Source of the DNA: a virus
Length of the DNA stretch: 64,000 bases
IMG/VR virus record: IMGVR_UViG_3300049491_000955
Span: 1 to 64,000 of that record
Direction: 5' to 3' (one strand)
The position numbers and the translations under genes were made by a program. The notes under the pieces are model-generated. The model had not been told where the DNA came from, did not search any database, and saw only the letters and a list, made by a program, of their open reading frames with translations. Each line of letters opens with the position of its first letter. Positions within the stretch are counted from its first letter, which is position 1. This document shows, in pieces, positions 2,118 to 56,399 of this stretch.

Positions 2118-3170
2118 TTATCCGTAGCTCCCTCCTTTTAGTCTTTTTCTTGGGCGAAACTCTGATGGTAGCTGCGACAGAACTAATCCAAATTCTGAGT
2201 TTTTCCCTATGTGCCATAAAATAATTCTTGCAAATTCAAACATTTTCTCATTTACATTGTTTTTTGTTACATAAACTCTTTCGCCTGAATATATTTCGAC
2301 TAATCGAGTTAAAGTTTTTGCAATAATTTCTACAGTTTGATCAAAACTTAGCAAGTTCAATCCTTCAGCTTCTGCTAAATTTTTTATGTTTAATATCTTT
2401 GACAGCCATTTACTTAATGTTGGCTTGTCTTTTGCACCCGTTAAACCAAGAAAAACACAAATATCTCTTACGTGTTCAATTACGTAATGATTTTGTTTTA
2501 ATTTCTCGAAATCTATTGTATCCGGATCCGCTGAGTAGAAAAATTCTCTAGGAATTCCTGCTTGTTTTAAGTAATATTTTTCATCAACATATTTGACTAT
2601 TCCTTGTTCTATCTTGTCTTTTCTAGCAAGCTTTTCACTAGGTCTGTAAGCTGGTGGTAAAGAAACCATTATGTTTGAGAACGTTCCTCGCGTAAAAACT
2701 TCCCACAACATATTTCTAGCCATTAGTGTTAAAACACCTTCGTAAGTGTCTGTTTCTATTCGACATATTCTAGACAAGCATTTAGCTAAAATGTCTGTTG
2801 CTTCCCCGGGACGAAGCAGCGACAATTGACCTTCTGGAATGCTTTCATGTGAAGAAGCTTTCTGTACCCAATTCCTGAAATTTTGGCGATTTTTTATTTG
2901 ATCTATTCCCATCTTTAAGCAAATATCACGCATCAAAGTTACTGGGATTAGCTTATTCTCGCAAGACTTCCAGTCGTGAAAATCACTATTATTAAAAAGC
3001 AAATCCGCTGGCACTCCTCTAGATATCAATAGAGAAGTAATACTTTCCCTTAAAATGTCTTTCTGCTTTAGTTTAAAGTCGTTTTCCAGTTTATTCGTGT
3101 CTAAAATGTTACTTATCATCTCTCTTTTTAGTTTTCCTACTGTTTCTTGCTGTCTGTTTGCTGCTTGCAA
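2118..3170 (-). CDS. Hypothetical protein with two tandem ~110-aa homologous domains, possibly HTH-like
   Basis: RDICLKMG...NWVQK...LSLL...LAKCLSRI...ARNMLW...LPPAYRP is repeated as RDICVFLG...KWLSK...LNLL...IAKTLTRL...ARIILW...LPSEFRP. Confidence 0.75.
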   Translation of the reverse strand: MQAANRQQETVGKLKREMISNILDTNKLENDFKLKQKDILRESITSLLISRGVPADLLFNNSDFHDWKSCENKLIPVTLMRDICLKMGIDQIKNRQNFRNWVQKASSHESIPEGQLSLLRPGEATDILAKCLSRICRIETDTYEGVLTLMARNMLWEVFTRGTFSNIMVSLPPAYRPSEKLARKDKIEQGIVKYVDEKYYLKQAGIPREFFYSADPDTIDFEKLKQNHYVIEHVRDICVFLGLTGAKDKPTLSKWLSKILNIKNLAEAEGLNLLSFDQTVEIIAKTLTRLVEIYSGERVYVTKNNVNEKMFEFARIILWHIGKNSEFGLVLSQLPSEFRPRKRLKGGSYG

Positions 3171-9368: not shown

Positions 9369-10697
9369 ATGGTTTCAACTAAACTTTTAAGTCCCAAGGT
9401 TCAAGCCCTTGTCAGTACTTGGCTAGGTTCTGTACCTATCCCTGACAAAAATCCTATTCAACTTTATTTGGATATGGTCACGGCTCATCCGGTTGCTTCC
9501 GCTGCTAATGATTTAAGAATTCTTCTTGGCATCTCTATGATGAGAGAATTTTCTCATTCAGATGAAAAGATTCAAGCAGAAGTCAGAAAGTCTATCTCAA
9601 ATATGTCCGGCTCTTGGCGCAATACAGTCGCAGGCATGATGACTTATCTCGCTTTTGGAAGATCTTTTAGCGAAGTTGCTCACGATATTATTAAAAAGCA
9701 AGCCACTCTTAAGATTATTCAAACCGTCGATCCTAGATATTATTATTTTGAAGGCAGCTTAGGCGAAATTACTCAGGTTCATTACTTAGGTATGACTGAT
9801 ATTTATATTCCCTATGAAAACGGCATCCATCTGATAAATAAACCCTACTTAGCACTTGGCGGCGATCCTTACGGTATTGCAATCTGCAAAGCAGCTTACC
9901 CCTTTGTTGAATTATCACGGCTAATAATGGCAAGCGTAACCGTCGCTGGAGAACGACAAGCCACTAAGCTGTTAGTCGGTCAAACTGATACTTCTAATAA
10001 TGATGTTGTAATGCCTGACCCCGAAACAGGACAGGCTATTCTTGACCCCCTAACAGGAGAAGAAAAATTATTTAATCAAGGGTATGTTCTCGCCAAACAG
10101 TTAGAGCAAGTTCAGAACAACTCTTACCTGGTAACAGACATCGCTAATCAGATTACTGCGATCGCCCACGAAACAGACGGCTCTTTCTTTATCAATATAT
10201 TGTCGTTTTTGGAAAGCATGATTCTACTCTCCTGGTTAATTCCCCGCACCGTTACCGGAACCGGATCAAGTTCTAGTGGGGATAGCAATCTAAATGAAGG
10301 ACACAGGGAAACCTTGCGCTTAGTTAACAGATCTGAAATGGAAATGATTAGCGAAGCCTTGATTGAACAAGCCATCAAACCAATGCTTATTTTCAATCAT
10401 GGTGAGATGGAAGATTACGGAACTTTCCCCGTAGCTCAAGAAGACTCAGCAGATACTGTTCAACTCTTGGCTGTACTTACCGCAGCAGTTGAACGGGGAA
10501 GCTTTAGCGCGTCTGATCTGAAAGTCATCAACAGAATGCGCGAGTTAGCTGGCATTGAACAGATAGAACCTTCTGAATTTGTCCCTCCAGAACTAAAAAA
10601 CCAACCGCAGATATCTAAAAACAATAACGAAAACTTGGACAGCAATGGTCTAGACGAACAAGGCAAGCCAGGTTCTAAAAGTTTTTTTTTAAAGTAA
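9369..10697 (+). CDS. Portal protein (DUF935 / Mu gp29-like)
   Basis: 442 aa; FGRSFSEV, GDPYG...AYP, GDSNLNEGH, LIEQAIKPMLIFNHG...GTF, INRMRELAGI. Confidence 0.8.
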   Translation: MVSTKLLSPKVQALVSTWLGSVPIPDKNPIQLYLDMVTAHPVASAANDLRILLGISMMREFSHSDEKIQAEVRKSISNMSGSWRNTVAGMMTYLAFGRSFSEVAHDIIKKQATLKIIQTVDPRYYYFEGSLGEITQVHYLGMTDIYIPYENGIHLINKPYLALGGDPYGIAICKAAYPFVELSRLIMASVTVAGERQATKLLVGQTDTSNNDVVMPDPETGQAILDPLTGEEKLFNQGYVLAKQLEQVQNNSYLVTDIANQITAIAHETDGSFFINILSFLESMILLSWLIPRTVTGTGSSSSGDSNLNEGHRETLRLVNRSEMEMISEALIEQAIKPMLIFNHGEMEDYGTFPVAQEDSADTVQLLAVLTAAVERGSFSASDLKVINRMRELAGIEQIEPSEFVPPELKNQPQISKNNNENLDSNGLDEQGKPGSKSFFLK

Positions 10698-11335
10698 AAG
10701 ACGTATCCACAGCATTCAACTGGAATAAATCCAGCCAACGTTACCACTACGCTAACGGCGCAAGCAAAGGACAATTTGTTGGAGACAAAAAAGTTAAGGA
10801 ATTAGTCGTTGCCGCGATCGCCCAACAAGCTGACTTAGGCAAAACGCTAACCAATCGAATGCTAAAAAAAGAAATTTCCGTTGCTGACTGGGAGTCTGGT
10901 ACAGCCCAAATATTAAGAAATCTATCTGTCTATCAATATGCTGTTGGAGTTGGCGGCGCAAAACAAATGGATTGGAAAGACCAATCACTAATTTCTGGAC
11001 AGCTTAACTTTCAACTTCAAAAGCTACGCGGCTTTTCCAACGAAATCTTGCGCGGCGAACTTACTGAAAAACAGATCCGAGCCAGAATTCAACTTTATTA
11101 CAACAAGACTCGTGGACTTTATGAGCTTGGCCGCCAACAAGGACATCGACGCAATGGTTACTTGTGGGAACGTCGTGTACTTAGCAATGTAGAAAATTGC
11201 GCTGAGTGCATCACTTACGCTAATACTGGCTGGGTTACTATTGGAACTCTTCCCAATATAGGCGATCGCTGTTCCTGCAAAGCTAACTGCAAATGTAGCT
11301 TTTATTACTCAAATAGTTTAAACAGACCTAAGTAA
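10691..11335 (+). CDS. Head morphogenesis / minor capsid (gpF-like) protein; open frame from 10679, first ATG at 10859, probably entered by -1 frameshift from the portal
   Basis: WERRVL...ENCAEC...GW...LP.IGDRCSCKANCKC motif; an upstream in-frame segment FNWNKSSQRYHY...KGQFV has no start codon. Confidence 0.75.
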   Translation, partial: KVKDVSTAFNWNKSSQRYHYANGASKGQFVGDKKVKELVVAAIAQQADLGKTLTNRMLKKEISVADWESGTAQILRNLSVYQYAVGVGGAKQMDWKDQSLISGQLNFQLQKLRGFSNEILRGELTEKQIRARIQLYYNKTRGLYELGRQQGHRRNGYLWERRVLSNVENCAECITYANTGWVTIGTLPNIGDRCSCKANCKCSFYYSNSLNRPK

Positions 11336-36593: not shown

Positions 36594-36623
36594 ACAGAGG
36601 TAATTAAGAAAGCAAAAAAAAAG

Positions 36624-36794
36624 ATGAAGACTAAAAGTATTAAGTTTTTAGCTTGCACTACTGTAACCATCGAAATTCCTGATGATTATCCAGAAGATGA
36701 AGAAGAATGGACATACGAACAAGTTGATGAAATCACTGATCTAGCATATGATAAACTTGAAGGATGTATTCCAGACTGGGAGATAGATTTTTAA
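36624..36794 (+). CDS. Small very acidic protein (56 aa, absent from the ORF track)
   Basis: MKTKSIKFLACTTVTIEIPDDYPEDEEEWTYEQVDEITDLAYDKLEGCIPDWEIDF; own promoter and a terminator at 36829-36860. Confidence 0.7.
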   Translation: MKTKSIKFLACTTVTIEIPDDYPEDEEEWTYEQVDEITDLAYDKLEGCIPDWEIDF

Positions 36795-56153: not shown

Positions 56154-56180
56154 GCAGATTTTAACCGCTGCTATTTTTTT

Positions 56181-56399
56181 TTGAAAAAAACAATTCTTAG
56201 TTGCGATCGCTGTAAGAAAGACATCAGCTTTTTTGATGAGCAGTTTAACGAATTTCTGGCTCAAGAATATCCGGGGTTAGACATCTGCGCTGATTGCGAC
56301 GGGCTTCTAGTTTTGGCGTCATCTTTGCAAACTCATGATTTGATTCGTGGAAACAAGCAGGGAACTGCTCTGAAGAAAATGTTGGAGCAATACAGTTAA
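56181..56399 (+). CDS. Small zinc-binding protein
   Basis: CDRC...CADC. Confidence 0.6.
   Translation: MKKTILSCDRCKKDISFFDEQFNEFLAQEYPGLDICADCDGLLVLASSLQTHDLIRGNKQGTALKKMLEQYS

Follow-up and report, generated by a model that had tools for sequence, protein, structure and literature searches.

The 64,000-nt window analysed here (IMG/VR record IMGVR_UViG_3300049491_000955, positions 1 to 64,000) derives from a cyanobacterial phage, and raises the question of how a head domain encoded immediately downstream of the portal gene, but lacking a start codon of its own, is expressed. The portal gene (9369–10697, rightwards transcribed) encodes a 442-residue protein matching Portal_Mu (PF06074; residues 31–380, E 4.3e-19, 69.5 bits against a gathering score of 23.9) as well as the portal family phrog_113. 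It ends AGT TTT TTT TTA AAG TAA, such that a run of nine T's (T9; 10682–10690) is followed closely by the TAA stop (10695–10697). The −1 frame is closed upstream by TAA at 10676–10678, is open from 10679 to 11335 (218 codons), and has its first ATG, GTG or TTG at 10859; it can thus only be entered at or after the T-run. Two overlapping X_XXY_YYZ heptamers, T_TTT_TTA (10685–10691) and T_TTA_AAG (10688–10694), are in the phase of the portal frame. The first-pass annotation described these features and proposed that a programmed −1 frameshift fuses a gpF-like extension to a fraction of the portal subunits; the features are confirmed and the interpretation is supported, although with qualifications as to the mechanism and the gpF-like label, and without protein or RNA evidence.

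The heptamers alone are not beyond chance. There are 36 in-frame matches to six slippery patterns among the 74 open reading frames of at least 100 codons in this 38% G+C window, and only three of them are at the end of the portal gene. The window has three runs of at least nine A's or T's, where about 1.2 of each base are expected; one of these, an A9 run at 36614–36622, is intergenic and is not a second coding slip site. However, the location of the T9 run exactly at a conserved domain junction, and its conservation in relatives, do go beyond chance.

The 56 start-less codons between the T-run and the first start codon encode real protein. The translation of the −1 frame from 10679 (P0002) matches phrog_24776 over residues 11–211 (E 4.6e-32) and has 2297 homologues, with stand-alone homologues starting with their methionine aligned to about residues 9–13, some 50 residues before the 10859 methionine (10859–10861; residue 61). 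An AlphaFold2 model (pLDDT 95.7) is folded from about residue 11, with a predicted hairpin at residues 13–24 and a predicted helix at residues 36–62 spanning Met61. Met61 is therefore an internal residue and not the true N-terminus.

The domain is Cys-rich and may resemble MuF/gp7 head proteins, although by predicted fold only. There is no Pfam hit for P0002 even at E values up to 10, and the homologue in Cr-LKS4 scores only E 0.76 against Phage_Mu_F (PF04233; 11 bits against a cut-off of 29.6). A Foldseek search of BFVD gives nine matches at E up to 0.001; named matches include 'Minor capsid component' (E 2.1e-4, TMq 0.57) and several entries annotated as 'Minor capsid protein' or 'Phage head morphogenesis domain' (E 9e-4 to 1e-2, TMq 0.3–0.55), although these names are annotations and not tests. 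No solved structure was matched: a profile search of PDB sequences had a best E of 0.063 to an unrelated chain, Foldseek against the PDB gave no match at E up to 0.001, and a VIA-align search gave only generic helical bundles (Z up to 8.9). The position directly after the portal gene is that expected of the MuF/gp7 family, and is shared with Cr-LKS4 and S-CBS4.

An alternative is that the domain is made on its own, either by initiation at a non-canonical codon near 10694 or as an N-truncated protein from Met-10859, with the T-run being incidental. In most of the wider family the homologue is a separate gene directly after the portal gene (e.g. Cr-LKS4 g09 and S-CBS4 gp013), and gene callers do predict reading frames of 158–182 codons here. 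However, there is no ATG, GTG or TTG for 60 codons in the window, or for 35 codons in its closest DNA relative, a metagenome contig designated L004, and the codons at the homologous start position are GTA and ATA. Initiation at Met61 would remove a hairpin and most of a helix from a confidently predicted fold, the start-less stretch is under purifying selection (pN 0.36 and pS 0.87 against L004), and close relatives are in-frame fusions. Independent expression is therefore unlikely.

L004 is 60% (portal) and 64% (domain) identical to the window with saturated synonymous sites (pS 0.81–0.87), yet has T9 in the same phase (L004 coordinates 3004–3012), TAA four bases later, and the same split. 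Of the two heptamers only T_TTT_TTR is shared (T_TTT_TTG in L004). Both halves show pN well below pS. This counts against the explanation that the true genome has T10 and a constitutive fusion, or that the frameshift is an inactivating mutation in a defective element, a possibility raised by the error-prone nature of homopolymers, by the constitutive fusions in most relatives, and by the record being an uncultured, 69%-complete linear contig. A second assembly (Logan) of the probable source sample also has T9, with no other letters, no gaps and a word depth of 61, although this run is available as contigs and may be the window's own source. Together with five further contig sets showing short portals plus separate domain reading frames, and the absence of a T-run at this position in the fused relatives (longest run 3–5), these observations make artefact or decay improbable.

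Three further short portals end in FFL plus one or two residues (...SASFFLK, ...SFFLEE and ...SFFLGE). For the first two, contigs of matching length also carry N-truncated domain reading frames (an 82591-bp length with P0158 and P0233, and a 17390-bp length with P0228 and P0245), but no domain reading frame was found for the third (P0230). These relatives are known only as proteins, and T9 is seen at the DNA level in just two genomes: two scans of a genome contig collection gave no relative, and searches of viral contigs gave nothing with P0002 alone or with the short portals P0158 and P0159, and only L004 again with P0228. The FFL-ending portals are not one clade in quick trees with SH-aLRT support (AU test p 0.00016, although applied after the tree had been seen), and the state therefore runs along the backbone of the tree.

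A further 28 related loci, comprising all of those with the junction present, encode portal and domain in one continuous frame, showing that the fusion is a natural protein. Each has a single conserved in-frame A_AAA_AAG at the junction with a −1 stop 1–6 codons later, and in 12 of 13 sequences examined by eye there is GAGG or GGAGG 9–12 nt upstream. This is the reverse, dnaX-like arrangement, in which the long form is the zero-frame product and the short form would come from the slip; a bare dnaX site is reported to give 14% frameshifting in vitro (10.1101/2025.10.02.679949). RNAalifold of 13 of these junctions gave only −0.73 kcal/mol and seven scattered pairs.

The T9 run is thus likely a programmed recoding site, although this rests on sequence without protein, RNA or raw-read data. 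Ordinary decoding ends at 10695–10697 to give the 442-residue portal, and in a fraction of events reading would move to the −1 frame (10691–11335; 214 codons plus stop) to give a 655-residue portal with the MuF/gp7-like domain at its C-terminus. The rate of slippage is inferred to set how many of the 12 portal subunits carry the domain into the capsid interior.

Two mechanisms fit about equally well and each is proposed only tentatively, as they cannot be separated from sequence alone. The first is a ribosomal −1 slip on U_UUU_UUA and/or U_UUA_AAG, perhaps helped by the adjacent stop codon. The heptamers are correctly phased, U_UUU_UUR is shared with L004, the zero-frame stop lies 1–2 codons after the site in every short portal seen, and sister lineages carry the classical A_AAA_AAG with a conserved G, which is a ribosomal signature. 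However, U_UUA_AAG is absent from L004 and no conserved stimulator was found: folds downstream of the site in the window and L004 are no better than shuffles (z −0.72 to +0.56), Rfam at E up to 1 gave nothing in 10400–11000, and by eye the SD-like words are weak (AGGT 9–12 nt upstream in the window) or badly spaced (AAGG abutting the run in L004). The second is slippage of RNA polymerase, adding one U to some mRNAs; T10 would read AGT TTT TTT TTT AAA GTA, in frame with the domain, and the same holds in L004. Consistent with this, the full nine-base run is kept in both genomes although a ribosomal heptamer needs only six T's plus one base, and runs of about nine A's or T's appear to be of the length at which bacterial RNA polymerases slip efficiently, as in Thermus dnaX (A9) and Shigella mxiE (T9), the latter a cellular regulator rather than a virion protein. 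However, only two sequences support it, and the three extra T's also encode Phe in both frames.

The arrangement is similar to the G/GT-type −1 frameshift of the tail assembly chaperones of long-tailed phages (Xu, Hendrix and Duda 2004, as cited in PMC7911831 and PMC3556154), in which a short zero-frame product and a rarer C-terminally extended product arise from an X_XXY_YYZ site near the end of the upstream gene, the downstream frame has no start of its own, and conservation is of position rather than sequence. Here the gene pair differs, and the site is a nine-base homopolymer that could equally act at transcription. Microbacterium phages of clusters EA3/EA5/EA8 and EB have portal and MuF-like functions in one polypeptide, but these are described as plain fusions without mention of recoding (PMC7302621). 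In SPP1, a MuF-type protein (gp7) encoded next to the portal gene (gp6) is targeted to the procapsid interior through the portal in a small number of copies, but by a non-covalent interaction between separately translated proteins (PMC6316719), whereas the link proposed here is covalent and set by the slip rate. No description of a frameshift at a portal gene was found in these reports or in PMC4378225 and PMC10885494 (the latter not mentioning portals), although subscription journals and supplementary tables could contain one.

It is about as likely as not that the portal/MuF junction is a second widely conserved recoding site of tailed phages, after the tail-chaperone frameshift. In this cyanophage clade the slip site appears ancestral and may have been rebuilt at least twice, as a T-run with a short zero frame, as a KKK-ending short portal (possibly with an A-run), and as an in-frame fusion with A_AAA_AAG and reversed polarity. 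Selection would then act on the ratio of bare to MuF-bearing portal rather than on any one gene layout, and the slip rate would determine how many internal, possibly ejected, proteins ride on the portal ring. If the slip is real, it offers a simple answer to how a phage loads a small, fixed number of MuF/gp7-type proteins onto a 12-subunit portal, with a bearing on what phages inject with their DNA.

Gene callers split this pair into a portal and an N-truncated 'hypothetical protein' of 158–182 residues, and the product and its start are therefore mis-annotated in every split-type relative seen.

The window is part of an 82,081-base linear IMG/VR virus record that is estimated to be 69% complete. 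A cyanobacterial host is suggested by 41 copies of GCGATCGC against 0.24 expected, including copies inside both of the genes discussed here (at positions 10158, 10814 and 11262); this word likely corresponds to the cyanobacterial HIP1 repeat, and relatives with fused genes are labelled by NCBI as Dolichospermum MAG proteins. The ORF at 9369..10697 encodes a 442-aa Mu-type portal (PF06074, 69.5 bits, E 4.3e-19) and ends AGT TTT TTT TTA AAG TAA, with a T9 run at 10682-10690. The -1 frame is closed by TAA at 10676-10678 and is then open to 11335, with its first ATG/GTG/TTG at 10859. The first-pass annotation had noted slippery heptamers at the portal end and a -1 frame that stays open without a start codon into the ORF at 10859, and every element of that observation is correct. 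However, slippery heptamers alone mean little in this sequence, as there are 36 in-frame matches to six such patterns in 74 ORFs, and three runs of at least 9 A or T in 64 kb is about the number expected by chance. The other two runs are an A9 (36614-36622) in intergenic DNA directly before the ATG at 36624, and a T9 at 56174-56182.

The start-less stretch is protein. The product of the 218-codon -1 frame (P0002) matches phrog_24776 over residues 11-211 (profile positions 6-204 of 218, E 4.6e-32), and a full scan of 1.84 billion representatives gives 2297 relatives at E up to 0.001. Many of these are 200-250 aa proteins whose first few residues align to query residues 10-13, and the domain therefore begins about 10 residues after the T-run. 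An AlphaFold2 model built on 79 sequences has a mean pLDDT of 95.7 and is ordered from about residue 11, with a predicted hairpin at residues 13-24 and a predicted helix at residues 36-62 that contains Met61, the codon at 10859. A protein started at 10859 would lack part of this fold.

Pfam searches give nothing for P0002 even at E 10, and sequence and fold searches of the PDB give nothing specific. Comparison with predicted viral structures gives nine matches at E up to 0.001, and the named rows are minor capsid proteins and 'phage head morphogenesis domain' proteins, with TMq of about 0.3-0.6. The gene sits directly after the portal gene, as in phages Cr-LKS4 and S-CBS4, where it is a separate gene; in Cylindrospermopsis phage Cr-LKS4, a distant relative, a 70-aa ORF with no Pfam hit (g08; L001 2789-3001) is situated between the portal and the standalone homologue of the domain and overlaps both. 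The domain is therefore referred to as MuF/gp7-like by fold and position, although it is not a demonstrated member of PF04233. It contains six Cys residues, of which C174, C177 and C200 are invariant and C206 is nearly so in 79 sequences, and a metal site is inferred. Some members of the domain family (P0015, P0016, P0021, P0038, P0080, P0095, P0102, P0124 and P0146) carry long extra regions (450-811 aa in total), reminiscent of the cargo domains fused to MuF-type proteins; eight of these nine have no Pfam hit at E up to 0.01, and P0015 has only a sub-threshold match.

A scan of viral contigs with a small alignment yields 22 loci and a scan of metagenome contigs yields eight. Of these, 21 of the 22 and seven of the eight have a single open frame running from the portal N-terminus to the end of the domain. 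The open frames are 634-649 codons, although locus L023 is cut by its contig end, and L028 starts inside the domain and has no junction; that leaves 26 distinct contigs. The portal-domain fusion is therefore the normal protein in the sister clade.

The exception among the 22 is L004 (IMGVR_UViG_3300045954_000073), in which the portal frame ends GGT TTT TTT TTG ACA TAA and the domain continues in the -1 frame. The run is again exactly T9 and in the same codon phase, with TAA four bases after it, and the first start codon in the -1 frame is 35 codons downstream; this frame is already open 120 nt upstream of the T9 (L004 2884-3003), overlapping the portal tail. Against the window the portal is 60% identical and the domain 64%, synonymous differences are saturated (pS 0.81-0.87) and pN is 0.24-0.36; the start-less stretch itself has pN 0.36 and pS 0.87. 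A dead gene or a chance run would not survive that divergence.

Additional support comes at the protein level only. Portal homologues of about 420-460 aa end ...SASFFLK (P0158, 88% identical), ...GFFLT (P0182, the L004 type), ...SFFLEE (P0228) and ...SFFLGE (P0230), although no domain ORF was found for P0230 (contig 3011). FFL plus a stop one or two codons later is what a T-run in this phase encodes, and a T-run in these relatives is thus inferred from protein sequence. Two other portals end ...DKKKLIF and ...AKKKALIQ (P0159 and P0160), and these together with P0240 (contigs 49460, 39046 and 3461) represent a sister lineage of short portals ending in KKK plus 3-4 residues instead of FFL. Contigs of matching length carry N-truncated domain ORF calls (P0235, P0234 and P0004), and KKK may mark an A-run version of the same slip site.

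Quick maximum-likelihood trees of the portal part place the groups in the order (P0228, P0230), then P0182, then [(window, P0158) with (P0159, P0160)] as sister to the fused clade, with SH-aLRT of 97-100 on these branches. Holding the five FFL-type portals together costs 74 log-likelihood units (AU p 0.00016), although this test was run after the tree had been seen, and the rooting relies on long outgroup branches. On any rooting, the T-run state occupies three separate lineages along the backbone and is most simply ancestral, with the fused and KKK forms derived.

The fused clade also has a putative slip site. All 28 fused loci with a junction contain exactly one in-frame A_AAA_AAG in about 640 codons (e.g. 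L005 2964-2970, L008 2955-2961, L011 2979-2985, L017 2961-2967 and L027 2491-2497), located at the portal/domain boundary (codon 411-424, or 180 in the truncated L023) and followed by a -1 stop 1-6 codons later. The clade falls into five groups with pairwise pS of 0.69-0.83, across which AAAAAAAGT is the third-longest fully conserved nucleotide run in 1935 alignment columns and lies in the most indel-rich linker; from the codon usage, the chance of writing [E/Q]KK in this way is estimated at about 0.15 per lineage. By eye, GAGG or GGAGG is situated 9-12 nt upstream in 12 of 13 aligned sequences, and is lacking in L019. This is the dnaX layout, in which the zero frame gives the long form and the slip would give a short portal ending where the window's portal ends; this is inferred from sequence and is considered more likely than not.

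The T9 run does not appear to be an assembly error. The independent Logan assembly of the one sequencing run that holds this stretch reproduces the region with no differences and no gaps at a word depth of 61, although that run may be the window's own source, such that this tests the assembler and not the sample. Fused relatives have no T-run at this place (longest run 3-5), and a 'true T10' would not be the family norm either.

Either a ribosomal slip or RNA-polymerase slippage could generate the fusion, and all routes give a 655-aa product (441 or 442 portal residues plus 214 or 213 codons, or 438 + 3 + 214 for an added U). A ribosomal slip is supported by the correct heptamer phase, the stop codon one or two codons downstream in every short portal, and the ribosomal-type site in the sister clade. 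RNA-polymerase slippage is supported by conservation of all nine T's and by the fact that no stimulator was found in the RNA folding and Rfam analyses, and the two mechanisms are not distinguished by the sequence data. The purpose is inferred from established knowledge: SPP1 gp7 is brought into the procapsid by the portal in a small number of copies (PMC6316719), and a slip rate would set such a number covalently.

Fusions of portal and MuF are known in Microbacterium phages (PMC7302621), whereas the frameshifts described in the phage papers consulted concern tail chaperones, and the PRFect paper does not mention 'portal'. No report of recoding at a portal gene was found in literature searches that did not cover supplements and subscription journals. 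The present case adds a cyanophage clade, a T9 site and, as inferred from sequence, both polarities among sister lineages.
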